From a phage, in the sequence record PV467749.1: a stretch of DNA of 64,000 nucleotides. The stretch is one strand, 5' to 3'. A program made the translations under genes and the position numbers. Shown here piece by piece: positions 7,704-26,887 of the stretch. The first letter of the stretch is position 1; each line of letters begins with the position of its first letter. The notes beneath the pieces were generated by a model. It did not search any database. It saw only the letters and a program-made list of their open reading frames with translations, and was not told where the DNA came from.

Positions 7704-8588
7704 TTAAATTACATATGGTTTATAGTAATGAATCTCGTTTGATATTGCAGCGAAGACTTTGTTATTAAATCTTTCACCATAATCACGAAGAGATTCACCT
7801 TCTTCGCTTTCAATAAAGTAATTATATACTGGTAGACGTGCGGTGTCAACACCTATAAATGATTTCATGTAAATTTGTACTAAACGATTCATTCCTTCAT
7901 TTAAGCATTGCACCTCAAAGTGCTTGATACCTTTGTCTAAATGTTTGAATGCATTAATGATACCACGTTTAAAATCACGCTGCATAGTACTGAATAGATT
8001 CTCAGGGAACACTGTAATAGGTGACATTGATTTAAGAATGTATGTATCTTTAGCATTCTTAATATACTCAATGAAGCAGTAGTTAACGTCAGGCTCGATA
8101 GAACGATCAGCGTTATGATACCAGTACTTAAACTCACTGTACTCAGCAAACTTATGCTGGCGTAATGCGTTACAATCCTCACACAGTGCAGTCATGTTCT
8201 CTTTATCATTGCCACCCTGGAGACAGTCCAGTACATTATGGTCTAACGTCATGCGTACAAGGCGTTTACCTTTAAGTACATAAGGTCTGAATTTATAACG
8301 GTCTTTAGTACTGTGCTTATGTAAAGTGAATACCACATTGGATTCACCACAACAATCACATTTAAAGCCATCGCGTGACATTACATGAATGAGTTTTCGA
8401 GTATTTGGGCCGAACTCAGATTTAGTAATGTTGCCAACAATTTCTGATGGGTCGTAGTATTTTGAATTCCGGCGAATCAATTCATCTATAGTGCTCATTT
8501 TATATTTCTCCAGCAAGACACTCAAAAGTGACTTTTTTAACTTCGATAACTCGTACCAAATAGTATCCATGAAAGAAATTAAAACCAA
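7704..8588 (-). CDS. HNH endonuclease (probable homing endonuclease)
   Basis: Cys cluster CDCCGESN and LDHNVLDCLQGGNDKENMTALCEDCN, HNH-type motif; true start may be internal Met. Confidence 0.6.
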   Translation of the reverse strand: MVLISFMDTIWYELSKLKKSLLSVLLEKYKMSTIDELIRRNSKYYDPSEIVGNITKSEFGPNTRKLIHVMSRDGFKCDCCGESNVVFTLHKHSTKDRYKFRPYVLKGKRLVRMTLDHNVLDCLQGGNDKENMTALCEDCNALRQHKFAEYSEFKYWYHNADRSIEPDVNYCFIEYIKNAKDTYILKSMSPITVFPENLFSTMQRDFKRGIINAFKHLDKGIKHFEVQCLNEGMNRLVQIYMKSFIGVDTARLPVYNYFIESEEGESLRDYGERFNNKVFAAISNEIHYYKPYVI

Positions 8589-8727
8589 TCATTTGTGATA
8601 ATGCATCTGCTTCAGATTTTGCACGGATACATGATAGATATAGTTCTCGTATATCGCCATCCAACGATGCTTGTTTCTCGTCATTGATAACAATAGAACG
8701 AATCTCAAAACGAACACCATAACTCAT
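8500..8727 (-). CDS. hypothetical protein
   Basis: 75-aa ORF overlapping HNH gene 5' end. Confidence 0.3.
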   Translation of the reverse strand: MSYGVRFEIRSIVINDEKQASLDGDIRELYLSCIRAKSEADALSQMIGFNFFHGYYLVRVIEVKKVTFECLAGEI

Positions 8728-8933
8728 TCTGTTTGTCCAACAATTAGTTTCTCTTTAGTATTACTATTATAACACCACATTAATTCTTCACCAACTGTTC
8801 TAAGTGAAACGCTGTTTACTTGTTCATATGTACTGTCACGTACTGCAATACATTGATTCATTGAATTCATTGGGGTGATTTGTACACCAGATTGTGGTGA
8901 AAGAGCAATAATTAAAAAGATTACTGAATTCAT
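8724..8933 (-). CDS. small secreted protein
   Basis: 69 aa with hydrophobic N-terminus. Confidence 0.4.
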   Translation of the reverse strand: MNSVIFLIIALSPQSGVQITPMNSMNQCIAVRDSTYEQVNSVSLRTVGEELMWCYNSNTKEKLIVGQTE

Positions 8934-8997
8934 TAGATATTCCTCGATGGTTAATCATCCATCTCTTCGAGATGTCTGTTCGCTTCTAATACTACGT

Positions 8998-9026
8998 ATT
9001 CTACGCGAATGAATCATAACTGTCAA
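8998..9026 (-). promoter_or_regulatory. sigma-70-like promoter (TTGACA-17-TAGAAT)
   Basis: Minus strand TTGACA GTTATGATTCATTCGCG TAGAAT about 60 nt upstream of gene starting at 8933. Confidence 0.55.
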
Positions 9027-9559
9027 GGACTTTTAATATTGACGGGATTTGAGGAAGGGATTTTTCTTCCCCCCGCACGGAGGGAAATTTGACGCTGATG
9101 GTATCAGAGCTATTGCATTGAAGATTACTCATAACGAGTGCGAAAGCGGGTCATCCTGTTTCTCTCTACTTCAGTTTCATATGACGGTCTACACTTTTAA
9201 ACATAGTGTATCTTCATTAAGTATCTATGCAATCAAATACTTAATGTGAGTACTCAAATTTTGGACGCAACTTTCCTGTACAAAATTCGATAACTCTCCC
9301 TTAGATAATTCGTAAGGTGTTATCCTTATATGTCTATCGAGGAACCACCAGCTATCCTAACGTGGTTCTTTATACAGCCGCATTGCCGTGAGGGGTTCAA
9401 ACTATGCCCACATCTAACGGGTTTCTTTTGCTGTTCGCTACAATGAAAAGCTCATCTATCCTTTACATTTTCAAGTGAAGTAGGGGAAGATTGTCAGTAC
9501 CAGTACTGTCATTGTGATTGTACATAGATCATTGTATCACCATTAATAAATTTGTCCCA

Positions 9560-9586
9560 TAAAAAAAGGCTGACCGAAGTCAACCC
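9560..9586 (-). terminator. rho-independent terminator
   Basis: Same GGTTGAC-TTCG-GTCAGCC hairpin plus T7 run immediately after sigma-factor stop. Confidence 0.65.
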
Positions 9587-9593
9587 TTTAATC

Positions 9594-10559
9594 TTAAAAA
9601 TCTTCGAACTCATAACCTTTTGTCTTAACCATCTTACGCAGTCGTTCCATTGCTTCAGAGTACTTACGGTGCAATGAAGAACGAGCAGTCATGACCTTAC
9701 CCTTCTCATCTTCAAAACCACTCTCAATGATTTCTCGTAGCGTTTCTGGTTCAGAATAAGAACCAATACCATGTACACGTTCAATCAATTCACGGTCTTT
9801 GGCAGATAGGTTACTCATCATTTCTGCAATACTTTGTACCAGTGGGGTACTGACAGTTTCTACGCCTAAGTTGTAATCAGGTTCAACTGAAGTAACAATG
9901 TCAGATAATGTACTTTCTGAATCATTACTCATTTTCATATTCAATGCTACATAAGTGTTATTGTAAGTTAGACAATTCTTAACGTGTTGAATCTCAATAC
10001 CAGTCTCTTTTGACACCATCTCAGGAGTTGGGTATTTACCATGTTTCCTTTGATACTCTTCTACACAACGTTTCACATAAATGTTATTAACACTCATATA
10101 ACGTGGGAAATGCACTAGATAATTAGCATCCGCACTTTCGTTATAGATTGTCATGTACACAGTTGTTGTTGCATATGTAATGAACTTAACATTTTTGGTA
10201 GTGTCGAACGTATGAATTGCTCGCATTAAACCTTCAACACCATAAGAAATCTTATCTTCAAATGGGATAAAACATGTACACTTACGTGCAACACTTACTA
10301 CCATTGGATAGTTGTAGCGAACCAAAAGGTCAATGTTCTTTTCAACGTCAATACCATCACGCACTGCTTGGATGAGCATTTCATTCGTTATCCCTTTAGG
10401 GCGAGTTAAGCTGATACCTGTTTTTGGTTTCTCAAACTTGTGACCGTCATGTTCTTCTTCTTCGACGGAATCAAGAGCCTCTAATACGTTGACTTCTTCA
10501 CTAGCAAAACACTCATCCAGTACTTCTTCAGAAATTGCATTTAAATCAAGCTTTTTCAC
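9594..10559 (-). CDS. RNA polymerase sigma factor, sigma-70 family
   Basis: Region 2-like PMVVSVARK...EDKISYGVEGLMRAIHTFD...KFITYATTTVYMTI and region 4-like LSAKDRELIERVHGI...ETLREI...RKYSEAMERLRK. Confidence 0.65.
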   Translation of the reverse strand: MKKLDLNAISEEVLDECFASEEVNVLEALDSVEEEEHDGHKFEKPKTGISLTRPKGITNEMLIQAVRDGIDVEKNIDLLVRYNYPMVVSVARKCTCFIPFEDKISYGVEGLMRAIHTFDTTKNVKFITYATTTVYMTIYNESADANYLVHFPRYMSVNNIYVKRCVEEYQRKHGKYPTPEMVSKETGIEIQHVKNCLTYNNTYVALNMKMSNDSESTLSDIVTSVEPDYNLGVETVSTPLVQSIAEMMSNLSAKDRELIERVHGIGSYSEPETLREIIESGFEDEKGKVMTARSSLHRKYSEAMERLRKMVKTKGYEFEDF

Positions 10560-10581
10560 TTACTTCTCCTAATGAATGAAA

Positions 10582-11079
10582 TCAAAAACGGTATACATTA
10601 ATATTATCATCGGTATAGATATCATGGTTATGAACATCCATGAAGGTATCAAATACCTTATCAAGAAGAGTATTATACTCTTCATGTACTGCTGCATCAA
10701 GCATGTATTCACCACCACTACCCATAAAGAATGTATAATCATTATGGAGATAATCAATCTTCTTGGTAAACTTACCCTTATTAACGATTAAGTGAATGAT
10801 GTAATCTTTTGACACAAGAACACAGTGACAACTCGCCTTGCGGTCTGGTATCACAGTCTCTTGTGAAATCAAGTATCTCAGTACTTTGTTAATTTCACTA
10901 ACTTCACCGCAAGCACTAAACAGTCGGTCGTGTACATACAATGTTTTTTGTGAAACTACACCATAACTAAGTTTTGGTTTCAACGGGAATAGGTTCAAAA
11001 ATGAACGTTGCTCAGTTGATGTCACTTTTGAATCAGTAAGTAATACTCCCAAGCGTTTATCAATATAAACAGTCGTCAT
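10582..11079 (-). CDS. putative Ntn-hydrolase peptidase (HslV/proteasome-beta-like)
   Basis: N-terminal MTTVYID (Thr after Met) and GSGGEYMLDAAV resembling HslV GSGGxYAxAAA. Confidence 0.4.
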   Translation of the reverse strand: MTTVYIDKRLGVLLTDSKVTSTEQRSFLNLFPLKPKLSYGVVSQKTLYVHDRLFSACGEVSEINKVLRYLISQETVIPDRKASCHCVLVSKDYIIHLIVNKGKFTKKIDYLHNDYTFFMGSGGEYMLDAAVHEEYNTLLDKVFDTFMDVHNHDIYTDDNINVYRF

Positions 11080-24938: not shown

Positions 24939-24961
24939 ATTAATTATATCAGTACTTAATC

Positions 24962-25339
<378 letters not shown>

Positions 25340-26754: not shown

Positions 26755-26870
<116 letters not shown>

Positions 26871-26887
26871 ATAGTCTGTTCCAATAT

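Follow-up and report, generated by a model that had tools for sequence, protein, structure and literature searches.

A large structured RNA of a probable new family in Rak2-like jumbo phages, encoded in a possibly origin-like module

INTRODUCTION

What is the role of some 660 bp of DNA without an evident gene in the densely packed genome of a jumbo phage? The gap in question lies in the window analysed here, a 64,000-nt stretch of the Asteriusvirus record PV467749.1 that is 99.5% identical to phage EC.P1. An earlier note, made from the letters of this DNA, had raised the idea that it encodes a small RNA or serves regulation. Large, intricate RNAs are rare, and most known classes are ribozymes or the cores of ribonucleoprotein (RNP) machines; the orphan large-RNA classes GOLLD, ROOL, OLE and raiA are actively studied.

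We are nearly certain that the gap holds the gene for a structured non-coding RNA (ncRNA) of a new family. The guess of an RNA is thus upheld by covariation, but at ~435 nt the RNA is not small; a cis-regulatory or positional role is also possible. Our best overall explanation, an independent minus-strand module in which this RNA gene serves an origin-type role, we rate as moderately likely, a compromise between near-certainty about the RNA gene and a far more tentative view of the role.

RESULTS

The gap and its boundaries

The gap (8934-9593) is bounded by two minus-strand ORFs, that of a sigma factor (9594-10559) and one of 69 aa (8724-8933). An HNH endonuclease gene is found nearby (7704-8588). 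The description of the gap as a gene-free region with short ORFs only holds: ORFs inside it encode 30-66 aa and none is conserved. So does that of a GC-richer, self-complementary interior, with self-complementarity seen and a GC content of 0.415-0.425 vs ~0.35 in the flanks. ARAGORN predicted neither a tRNA nor a tmRNA there; a tRNA cluster lies 13 kb from the RNA gene.

The earlier note had placed a strong terminator at the start of the gap (read on the minus strand) and a sigma-70-like promoter at its end, and both are there. The terminator hairpin, AAAGGGUUGAC-UUCG-GUCAGCCUUU followed directly by a U-tract (dG -13.9 kcal/mol, z = -5.1), is a stable GC-containing stem of the intrinsic (Rho-independent) kind; a simple pattern scan did not list it, and at least six further near-identical copies occur elsewhere in the genome. 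The promoter matches the consensus at 11 of 12 positions and serves the downstream 69-aa ORF, whose ATG at 8933 is preceded by the Shine-Dalgarno sequence GAGGA. Neither signal is a boundary of the element, as had been supposed, the terminator being that of the sigma-factor gene and the promoter that of the downstream ORF. A second promoter within the gap, directly after the terminator (9558-9531), had been missed.

Several GenBank records annotate ORFs of 38-66 aa on the RNA region. Among 42 homologues of the element the longest ORF ranges from 28 to 88 aa with varying strand and frame, no conserved in-frame ORF was found, and indels of 1-2 nt occur in the conserved core. The annotated ORFs are spurious.

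Promoter, extent and strand of the RNA gene

The second promoter, GGGACA-N13-TGaTACAAT, heads all paralogues and orthologues of the RNA gene and belongs to the phage's 'GGGACA/TGAAACG + extended -10' class, which has 22 minus-strand members in the genome, some of them before tRNA genes. The same class includes the 'divergent RpoD-like' promoters described in CBB and GAP32, which have a TGAAACG -35 and a TATA -10 element; in CBB the class was tied to protein-coding DNA-synthesis genes, and the paper does not mention that some of the promoters head RNA genes (PMC5259590). The class heads every RNA copy, in a GGGACA/GAGACA version in Asteriusvirus. From the promoter, transcription would start at about 9523-9525. 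In this copy (c1) the 3' end is uncertain, for the canonical terminator found immediately past the CGUCAR box in other paralogue types is missing from it.

Conserved G.U pairs establish the minus strand as the RNA strand. Folding energies of the whole gap (MFE z-score -2.5 for minus and -4.1 for plus) do not tell the strands apart, so the strand is set by these G.U pairs and by promoter and terminator polarity.

Covariation and fold

Pairing was scored over 42 diverse homologues (alignment A1; 93 pairs, 3718 base-pair cells), with 500 shuffles and slid partners as controls. Cells capable of pairing make up 93.4% of the total, vs 73.7% after shuffling and 34-41% with slid partners, and none of the 500 shuffles reaches the observed value. 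The covariation score is 0.489 (0.161 shuffled, 0.06-0.10 slid), and the top column pairs in an APC-corrected G-test are nearly all 100% canonical with three to four pair types. Compensatory changes are found in 69 of the 93 pairs, the five pseudoknot helices included. Structure is thus kept by compensatory change well above controls, as in structured ncRNAs generally, and because this covariation is overwhelming we call the element an RNA gene. Covariation and conservation in related phages had been named beforehand among the points to check; the former is as just described, and the element is recognisable by DNA search in at least five phage genera. Among Asteriusvirus genomes its interior is 98-99% identical, vs ~92% for flanking coding DNA, a level of conservation well above chance.

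The architecture has 21 or more helices, of which five form pseudoknots (Table 1).

Table 1. Features of the gap and of the fold of the RNA (positions in the window)
Feature	Position	Strand	Remarks
Intrinsic terminator of sigma-factor gene	9561..9589	-	11-bp stem, UUCG loop, U7 tract 9561-9567
RNA-gene promoter	9531..9558	-	-35-like GGGACA 9558-9553; TG-extended -10 TGaTACAAT 9539-9531
Structured RNA body (paralogue c1), ~435 nt	~9089..9524	-	From homologue alignments and covariation
5' domain	9437..9515	-	Covariation helices 1-6: 97%, 96%, 91%, 76%, 100% paired, compensatory changes
P1	9515-9509/9446-9440	-	Encloses hairpins P1a and P2
P1a	9508-9495	-	Hairpin within P1
P2	9483-9456	-	Hairpin within P1; conserved loop GAAAAUGUA
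P3 domain	9374..9434	-	Covariation helices 7-9; holds invariant CACGGCAAUGCGGC
P3	9434-9430/9378-9374	-	Encloses P4 and P5
P4	9420-9417/9389-9386	-	Inside P3
P5	9414-9407/9395-9390	-	Inside P3; short or long alternative form among paralogues
Pseudoknot region	9303..9383	-	Covariation helices 10-13: 100%, 98%, 72%, 96% paired
PK1	9383-9381/9332-9330	-	In pseudoknot region
P6	9368-9363/9347-9342	-	Hairpin whose loop makes PK2
PK2	9357-9352 (P6 loop) with 9308-9303	-	In pseudoknot region
Pa	9328-9325/9316-9313	-	Hairpin in pseudoknot region
Invariant junction UAAGGGAG	9303-9296	-	In region 9248..9303
P8, variable hairpin	base 9296-9294/9250-9248	-	Covariation helix 14
17-nt 'module' loop UACAGGAAAGUUGCGUC	9280-9264	-	Tip of P8
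3' domain	9112..9238	-	Covariation helices 15-21: 95-100% paired, most pairs with compensatory changes
P9	9238-9234/9227-9223	-	Loop 9233-9228 pairs with 9117-9112
P10	9210-9208/9192-9190	-	In 3' domain
PK3	9185-9181/9154-9150	-	Crosses P11 and P12
P11	9173-9169/9123-9119	-	In 3' domain
P12	9166-9162/9146-9142	-	In 3' domain
P13	9139-9137/9129-9127	-	In 3' domain
Box 1, AUCAGCGUCAA	9089..9099	-	Conserved RNA 3' end
GC hairpin UUCCCUCC-GUGC-GGGGGGAA	9067..9086	-	dG -13.2
Box 2, CAAAUCCCGUCAA	9039..9051	-	Direct repeat of box 1; conserved unit ends here
Sigma-70-type promoter TTGACA-17-TAGAAT	8998..9026	-	11/12 positions match; outside RNA unit

In the 5' domain the 3' strand of P1 forms the loop of a mini-hairpin (9451-9449/9439-9437), giving a pseudoknot. 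PK2 covaries through wholly different sequences in BF, CBB and RaK2. Each copy has zero to two of the 17-nt modules, capping P8 or P13; the 356-kb genome has none elsewhere. Invariant GACCGU and ACCCGC lie in the 3' domain, whose identity among Asteriusvirus genomes is 98-99%.

With its promoter and with a GC hairpin that is linked in cis and has a CGUCAR direct repeat on either side, the ~435-nt RNA gene makes up a three-part module. The 3' half of the hairpin, GGGGGGA(U/A)GAAA, is near-invariant; the 5' half varies yet still pairs, largely through G.U. Each of the four units has one G6AWG motif, and the genome has no other. Even in the types whose terminator comes between them and the RNA, hairpin and box 2 are retained, and neither is found elsewhere in the genome.

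Comparison with known RNAs

Rfam 15 scans of 8000-10500, of paralogue c2 and of five orthologous loci matched no family; those covered include RNase P, tmRNA, 6S, group I/II introns, GOLLD, ROOL, OLE, HEARO and hammerhead. The Rfam check proposed earlier therefore leaves the RNA outside every catalogued family. Chance-level matches, outside or unrelated to the element, had E values of 0.14-4.8 and 17-25 bits against thresholds of 41-80. Short word similarities to RNase P, hammerhead and lambda boxA/boxB, picked out by eye, were rejected because the order of elements was mismatched or the positions were unconserved, and because Rfam was negative. Full-text literature searches and the CBB, UE-S1, fEgEco12 and RaK2 genome papers yielded no description of the element.

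GOLLD (RF01998) and ROOL (RF03087) are large ornate ncRNAs, mainly of phages and prophages. The RNA described here resembles them in being phage-encoded, longer than 400 nt, structured and pseudoknotted, with strong covariation and no obvious cis-regulatory placement. It differs in being shorter, without sequence or structure match, and in having four to five regularly spaced paralogues where those have one copy per genome. Nor does it lie beside tRNA genes; it comes with a GC hairpin and a repeat box linked in cis, and belongs to jumbo myoviruses of Enterobacterales.

ORF-less gaps of large lytic phages are also the source of four RNA-seq-defined ncRNAs of 236-619 nt in PA5oct (PMC7318152, Table 1) and of one of ~800 nt in ICP1 (PMC7567579), abundant transcripts with no assigned function. 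PA5oct falls within the wider Rak2-related clade. A search of its ncRNA001 and ncRNA002 with the family profile (nhmmer) gave a best E of 1.2 over 21 nt and no sequence homology.

Paralogues, relatives and spacing

This genome has four paralogous modules, and CBB, GAP32, BF (an Eneladusvirus) and fHe-Yen9-04 have five each. RaK2 has no copy at the site that corresponds to c4 by synteny, but a further motif scan detected two or more divergent ones elsewhere in its genome. The paralogue types occupy syntenic positions across genera: the four to five paralogues are ancient, not recent insertions. In five-copy genomes (BF, GAP32, fHe-Yen9-04 and metagenomic ones) the copies are 52-86 kb apart. A minimum gap this large or larger would arise under random placement with P ~0.0003-0.02 in these genomes, which are not independent tests since the spacing is inherited. 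The arrangement in CBB is alike, its last interval needing correction for a record length that counts the terminal repeat, and the four Asteriusvirus copies are less evenly spaced (P ~0.05).

All copies share one strand, including c4, which in three genera sits amid opposite-strand genes and in Asteriusvirus, CBB and 7t3 is convergent with its neighbours; about 90% of genes are on that same strand, so that co-orientation is weak evidence. In types c3, c4 and c5 an intrinsic terminator directly follows the CGUCAR of the RNA, and the GC hairpin lies beyond it. Types c1 and c2 have no terminator after the RNA, and c2 has one right after the start site.

We consider it very improbable that the element is a selfish repeat scattered through the genome, whether MITE-like or intron-derived, or that the gap holds small protein genes missed by annotation. 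Its multiple intergenic copies and the HNH endonuclease gene nearby would suit a repeat, and the ORFs annotated in some records would suit proteins. The copies are, however, syntenic across genera, the alignments show none of the terminal inverted repeats expected of a mobile repeat, and Rfam has no intron or ribozyme match; no ORF is conserved, and the variation is compensatory, of the RNA type.

The layout of the terminators also invites a cis transcriptional role, either processive antitermination after the manner of HK022 put/EAR, with the nascent RNA altering the polymerase that makes it, or insulation of transcription domains, by which each module would govern the ~60-85 kb block downstream of it. 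A terminator right after the RNA (c3, c4, c5) or the start site (c2) is typical of such systems, in which a structured nascent RNA acting in cis is followed by intrinsic terminators; regular spacing, co-orientation with the main gene direction and a GC hairpin reached by read-through only are likewise in keeping with it. Yet the genes next to c4-type and island copies are convergent with them rather than co-oriented, types c1 and c2 lack the terminator after the RNA, and the genes downstream of c1 have their own promoter. Known antiterminator RNAs are of 70-120 nt; the ~435-nt RNA exceeds put/EAR four- to sixfold in length and is unrelated to them in sequence. We think this role unlikely.

Copies in bacterial islands

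Diverged full-length units (promoter, RNA and GC box; 55-62% identical) occur in chromosomal islands of Serratia and Enterobacteriaceae; one of these islands is in Serratia fonticola (CP133586.1, about 4.35-4.37 Mb). In a Serratia island copy both boxes are jointly changed to CGACAA. One unit adjoins a large serine recombinase gene. The unit and the gene beside it point towards each other in three islands, and in one of these the gene encodes a CI-like repressor. A bridge-RNA-like partnership with the large serine recombinase was rejected, as related recombinases of Yersinia at the same dapE-arsC site lack the RNA; related recombinase islands without the RNA mark it as optional cargo.

Among the genes of the RNA-bearing islands are some of defence type (mCpol, KAP NTPase). 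A sister island that shares the integration site and has a related recombinase encodes Hachiman genes and lacks the RNA. A PADLOC search of the RNA-bearing islands gave no matches, with no defence family consistently adjacent, and satellite functions sought there with PHROGs and PADLOC came to essentially nothing.

Intact, diverged copies with a phage-type promoter in such defence-rich islands raise the idea that the RNA neutralises an immune component of the host or commandeers a host factor, the island copies, under a promoter activated only by the infecting jumbo phage, being decoys or infection sensors. The Hachiman genes of the sister island point the same way, even though that island lacks the RNA, and induced antisense transcription of the convergent neighbours is conceivable. 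Against this stand the lack of a consistently adjacent known defence family, the absence of the RNA from islands with related recombinases, and the spacing and four to five ancient paralogues, which a counter-defence role leaves unexplained. It seems to us an improbable function.

DISCUSSION

Two readings of the RNA's action carry most weight. In the first the RNA acts purely in trans, as a ribozyme or as a subunit or scaffold of a phage RNP, its copies serving dosage and their position being irrelevant; GOLLD, ROOL, OLE and phi29 pRNA would then be comparable in kind. The complex pseudoknotted fold and the invariant nucleotides in junctions and loops are those expected of ribozymes and RNP RNAs. 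The gene has its own strong promoter of the tRNA-gene type and, in most paralogue types, a terminator directly 3' of the RNA; the swappable 17-nt peripheral loop resembles a protein- or RNA-docking element, and the 3' domain is conserved well above the flanks. This reading leaves unexplained the regular spacing, the GC hairpin and second CGUCAR box past the terminator and the complete units in bacterial islands, and its partner protein is only postulated. We regard it as possible though doubtful.

Above it we place, as a tentatively favoured reading that falls short of probable, a position-dependent module resembling an origin of replication. Host RNA polymerase would transcribe the RNA in the middle, DNA-replication phase, and the RNA would work by virtue of its fold, at the site of its synthesis or close by, as a counterpart of ColE1 RNA II or of the T4 oriF/oriG transcripts. 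The G-run hairpin and direct repeats would mark the point of hand-over to a primer or helicase loader.

The T4 genome contains several origins, and the transcripts of oriF (uvsY) and oriG (gene 34) start at middle-mode promoters; in ColE1 a G-rich segment of RNA II and the folding of the transcript decide primer formation. As in those systems, the module would give rise, from its own promoter, to a non-coding RNA several hundred nt long, and the locus itself would be the functional element. A dedicated middle-type promoter is present as sequence motifs, and where there are five copies they are dispersed so as to divide the genome. The differences are a far more complex fold, an absence of homology, an intrinsic terminator before the G-run in most paralogue types and, relative to ColE1, no antisense RNA I-like promoter seen at the module; origin activity here is a proposal from sequence.

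The spacing of the five copies argues for an origin or other cis role, as do the single strand shared by all copies (c4 included), the hairpin and box 2 kept beyond the terminator, and the tie of the promoter class to DNA-synthesis genes in CBB (PMC5259590). Islands that exploit phage machinery in cis would also be expected to retain whole units. On the other side, a pseudoknotted RNA with invariant junctions is far more elaborate than known origin transcripts, and in three types the terminator between RNA and GC box would free the RNA before the transition site. No origin signature is seen in the GC skew, which, however, tracks gene orientation only and is uninformative on origins. The less even Asteriusvirus spacing, the inheritance of spacing among genomes and the strand bias of the genes all weaken the positional argument, and the islands carry mCpol and KAP NTPase without obvious satellite functions.

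More broadly, the modules may be an unrecognised kind of origin or another position-dependent element that tiles the 350-kb genome and has been captured by host islands, a proposal we put forward as speculative. In it, a conserved ~435-nt RNA with several pseudoknots, made from a phage-specific middle promoter, would be coupled in cis to a site of G-run hairpin and direct repeats, with four to five such modules some 52-86 kb apart. Host islands would have captured the module and would thereby be activated, or copied, when a jumbo phage infects the cell.

The finding corrects the annotation of the spurious ORFs on the RNA. We know of no replication origin in Rak2-like jumbo phages. If the account is true, a new large-RNA class exists in cultivable jumbo phages of E. 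coli, Serratia, Yersinia, Pectobacterium and Cronobacter, with ancient paralogues, regular placement, a cis-linked DNA/RNA box and independent island copies as handles. It would offer an experimental way into the start of replication or the organisation of the 350-kb genome in Rak2-like jumbo phages, and into the function of large phage ncRNAs.

The gap and its borders

The window comes from an E. coli jumbo myovirus of the Rak2/121Q/PBECO4-like kind, an Asteriusvirus; over positions 8700-9700 it shares 99.5% identity with Escherichia phage EC.P1 (PQ657772.1). Genes around the gap (8934-9593, 3′ of the sigma-factor gene) run on the minus strand. An earlier note had described the gap as gene-free and GC-richer, bordered by a strong terminator and a sigma-70-like promoter, and this observation is confirmed on each point. 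Only ORFs of 30-66 aa lie between the flanking genes; GC content is 0.415-0.425 against ~0.35; the terminator has an 11-bp stem, a UUCG loop and a U7 tract (dG -13.9 kcal/mol, z = -5.1); and the promoter, TTGACA-17-TAGAAT, matches at 11 of 12 positions. A consensus terminator scanner found 0 sites in 8000-10600 despite this textbook terminator, so its negatives are unreliable.

The sigma-gene terminator is one of at least seven near-identical (90-96%) genomic copies, AAAGGGTTGACTTCGGTCAGCCTTTTTTT. Two genes downstream of the gap is a 294-aa ORF, labelled an HNH endonuclease in the record of phage WPEC5; this ORF has no association with other copies of the RNA described below. Several GenBank records (e.g. 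WPEC5, locus L002 1802-2247) carry 'hypothetical proteins' of 38-66 aa across the RNA gene on both strands; these are not conserved and are probably spurious. In the UE-S1 record, a repeat_region feature covers part of the RNA.

Coordinates of features (window positions unless EC.P1 or a locus number, with its own local coordinates, is named)
Feature	Position	Strand	Remarks
Sigma-factor ORF	9594-10559	-	321 aa; RNA polymerase sigma factor by annotation in relatives
Sigma-gene terminator and its family	9561-9589, 1438-1464; EC.P1 36841-36868, 37424-37451, 42047-42074, 42728-42758, 44805-44833 (L003)		
RNA-gene promoter	9558-9531	-	Immediately past sigma-gene terminator
Example 100%-paired helices	9434-9430/9378-9374; 9185-9181/9154-9150; 9173-9169/9123-9119; 9166-9162/9146-9142	-	
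17-nt loop sites	9264-9280; EC.P1 254527-254543, 254680-254696, 306982-306998		
Box 1	9099-9089	-	AUCAGCGUCAA; 3′ end of RNA
GC hairpin	9086-9067	-	dG -13.2; 3′ half GGGGGGA(U/A)GAAA near-invariant
Box 2	9051-9039	-	CAAAUCYCGUCAR
Sigma-70-like promoter	9026-8998		
Next ORF past gap	8724-8933	-	
HNH endonuclease ORF	7704-8588	-	
Copy c1	9558-9039 region		Window copy
Copy c2	EC.P1 306.7-307.2 kb		
Copy c3	EC.P1 254.5-254.9 kb		
Copy c4	EC.P1 169.4-169.8 kb		
Promoter-class sites just upstream of tRNA genes	24943-24970, 25125-25152, 26855-26882	-	19 further sites in EC.P1
Diverged full-length copies in bacterial chromosomes (one decayed)	L078 3257-5897; L115 10001-12644; L077 3513-4445; L071 6423-7025		

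Evidence for a structured RNA

The gap interior holds a gene for a member of a new family of large pseudoknotted RNAs. Homologues were collected by motif scans (two of IMG/VR, one each of metagenomes and GTDB genomes) with a profile-HMM filter, yielding 64 distinct full-length sequences, of which 42 with <95% identity were aligned (alignment A1). When column pairs were ranked by an APC-corrected G-test, the top pairs were, with few exceptions, 100% canonical and showed 3-4 pair types. The assembled fold comprises 21 helices with 93 pairs in total; five of the helices form pseudoknots. Of the earlier suggestion of a small RNA or a regulatory region, an RNA gene is backed by covariation among related sequences: 93.4% of 3718 cells show standard pairing, compared with 73.7% ± 0.4 after shuffling (0/500 shuffles reach the observed value) and 34-41% with partners slid 1-3 columns. 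Two-sided changes occur in 69 of the 93 pairs and in 718 cells (204 in shuffles), and the covariation score is 0.489 versus 0.161 for 500 shuffles and 0.06-0.10 for slid partners. Several helices are 100% paired with at least three pair types. By eye, divergent copies in phage RaK2 retain helices P1, P2, P3, P6, P8 and P10-P13, pseudoknot helices PK2 and PK3 and the long-range loop helix, with additional compensatory changes.

Highly conserved G.U pairs (e.g. A1 columns 470-477, 544-565, 468-479 and 493-515) would be A-C mismatches on the opposite strand; this and the promoter/terminator polarity place the RNA sense on the window minus strand. No ORF is conserved among the homologues, and ARAGORN found nothing in the gap. 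The Rfam scan proposed in the earlier note gave no family match for the window copy, one paralogue or five orthologues.

Anatomy of the unit

Past the promoter come ~435 nt in which invariant blocks alternate with variable stems, ending in box 1. An intrinsic terminator directly follows box 1 in paralogue types c3, c4 and c5 and is absent from c1 and c2. After the RNA, and after the terminator where present, all copies have the GC hairpin and box 2. Each unit has the hairpin motif G6AWG once, and the 356-kb genome has none beyond these four. A 17-nt loop, UACA..A.AG.U.CGUC, likewise occurs four times and never outside units; closed by an AAUUUUG/CAAAAUU stem, it is a swappable module that, depending on the paralogue, caps P8 or P13, both helices or neither (0-2 per copy).

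Copies of type c2 have a strong, terminator-like hairpin with a U6-7 tract ~5-40 nt past the -10, ahead of the conserved RNA. It is kept across genera (e.g. EC.P1 ~307,240-307,290, loci L007/L008; also L014, L018 and L033) and could be a leader attenuator.

Copies and their spacing

Positions 9030-9340 are 98-99% identical among Asteriusvirus genomes, whose flanking coding DNA is ~92% identical. Blastn matches were found in phages of Pectobacterium, Cronobacter, Serratia, Yersinia, Erwinia, Xanthomonas, Salmonella and Klebsiella, at 2-5 places per record. A whole-genome search of EC.P1 gave exactly four copies in one orientation, lying in separate gaps of 660-840 bp that are free of ORFs; c4 is flanked by genes of the other strand.

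In a clustering based on 407 core columns, copies of one paralogue type from different genera fall together, and in EC.P1, CBB and 7t3 alike the c4 type adjoins the genes for endonuclease VII and the baseplate hub; the paralogue duplications are therefore older than the genera. Five copies are also found in CBB, fHe-Yen9-04 and further metagenomic jumbo genomes, and at least two in RaK2; copies within any one genome share a strand. Spacing was evaluated against n random points on a circle, for which P(minimum gap ≥ d) = (1 - nd)^(n-1). A 355-kb metagenomic genome was excluded, because its loci came from two collections with possibly discordant coordinates. Five-copy genomes gave P ~0.0003-0.02, in tests that are not independent since the genomes are related. 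Regular spacing is kept over deep divergence, though among related genomes.

Spacing of copies
Genome	Copies	Intervals (kb)	P
BF	5	62.9/81.5/84.3/76.5/52.0	0.005
GAP32	5	63.6/78.7/83.9/79.3/53.1	0.005
Metagenomic genome, 366 kb	5	66.7/80.2/81.4/63.1/74.7	~0.0003
121Q (Asteriusvirus)	4	102/55/79/112	0.05

RaK2 has no RNA at the c4-syntenic site between its baseplate-hub and endonuclease VII genes (L061 1437-1800); this 364-bp gap has a terminator-like hairpin only, and the divergent copies are at ~191.6 kb and ~279.7 kb.

Promoter class

Every RNA copy is headed by a promoter, G(G/A)GACA-N13-TGnTAtAAT in Asteriusvirus and TGAAAC(G)-N-TGnTATAAT in other genera. These belong to the 'divergent RpoD-like' class of CBB and GAP32, which Buttimer et al. 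tied to DNA-synthesis genes (PMC5259590). The stricter form G(G/A)GACA-N13-TGnTATAAT has 22 matches in the EC.P1 genome, all on the minus strand, and looks, by sequence, like the phage's middle-promoter class. Besides the sites at tRNA genes, others precede replication and nucleotide-metabolism genes, and RNR, recombination, thymidylate synthase and RNA ligase genes are among those with such a site directly in front.

Copies in bacterial islands

The GTDB scan gave three true matches. Serratia sp. 2723 and S. fonticola CP133586.1 have a 568-aa large serine recombinase (domains: Resolvase, Recombinase and Zn-ribbon), integrated next to dapE-arsC, with the unit 380 bp downstream of it; the island also has genes for mCpol, a KAP NTPase, Hha and a CI-like repressor. 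Next to rimO in Serratia sp. L9, a 5′-truncated copy is joined to a recombinase that is itself truncated; this looks like a remnant in decay. An Enterobacteriaceae MAG has the unit between thiM and a CI-like repressor gene. Bacterial copies share only 55-62% identity with phage copies and cluster nearest the c5 type of Serratia/Yersinia phages. They keep the TGAAAC-type promoter, all core blocks, both boxes and the GC hairpin, whose lower stem shows compensatory changes; the two boxes of the Serratia island copy have undergone a joint change to CGACAA. Bacterial islands have captured complete units.

A role for the RNA as recombinase partner was rejected, since related Yersinia recombinases (53% identity) occupy the same dapE-arsC site in a Hachiman island without it; the RNA is therefore cargo of the recombinase islands. 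That Yersinia enterocolitica island (L116/L117 10001-19449) comprises HamA and a helicase, and the site looks like a defence-island hotspot. The island context, and nothing else, suggests a defence or counter-defence decoy, which we consider improbable; PADLOC and PHROGs searches of the islands gave no further functional clue. Cis-antitermination or insulation is likewise improbable, being weakened by the convergent genes at c4 and in islands.

Function

Each RNA comes with its own promoter of the phage class and a 3′ box linked in cis, and the 4-5 copies per genome are ancient, lie at regular intervals and share one orientation. Three features point towards action at the locus itself, not by a freely diffusing RNA: the copies are regularly spaced, the GC hairpin and box 2 are conserved even past a terminator, and islands retain the unit complete. 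By analogy, the best-fitting precedent is a transcript-dependent replication origin, a tentative reading that may well prove wrong, in which the modules would act as origins dependent on their own structured transcript. T4 oriF and oriG each combine a middle-mode promoter with an unwinding element, and in ColE1 the folded 555-nt RNA II, with its G-rich segment, decides primer formation. The origin reading is weakened by a fold whose complexity far exceeds the needs of any origin transcript and by the terminator ahead of the G-run in three paralogue types. GC skew follows gene orientation only. The main rival, a trans-acting ornate RNA serving as ribozyme or RNP scaffold in the manner of GOLLD, ROOL, OLE or pRNA, would account for the elaborate fold but leaves the positional features unexplained, and we rate it as only slightly less likely than the origin reading.

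Full-text literature searches found no description of the element, and the genome papers of CBB, RaK2, UE-S1 and fEgEco12 do not mention it. The related phage PA5oct has four ncRNAs defined by RNA-seq (PMC7318152), of which the two abundant ones have no detectable homology to the window RNA family; orphan ncRNAs are likewise made in abundance by ICP1 and its PLE satellites (PMC7567579). This makes the element a new RNA family of a known kind, the large ornate phage ncRNAs, but its regular multi-copy placement, cis-linked box and island capture are unreported there. If the positional function is true, the unit would be a new kind of genetic element.
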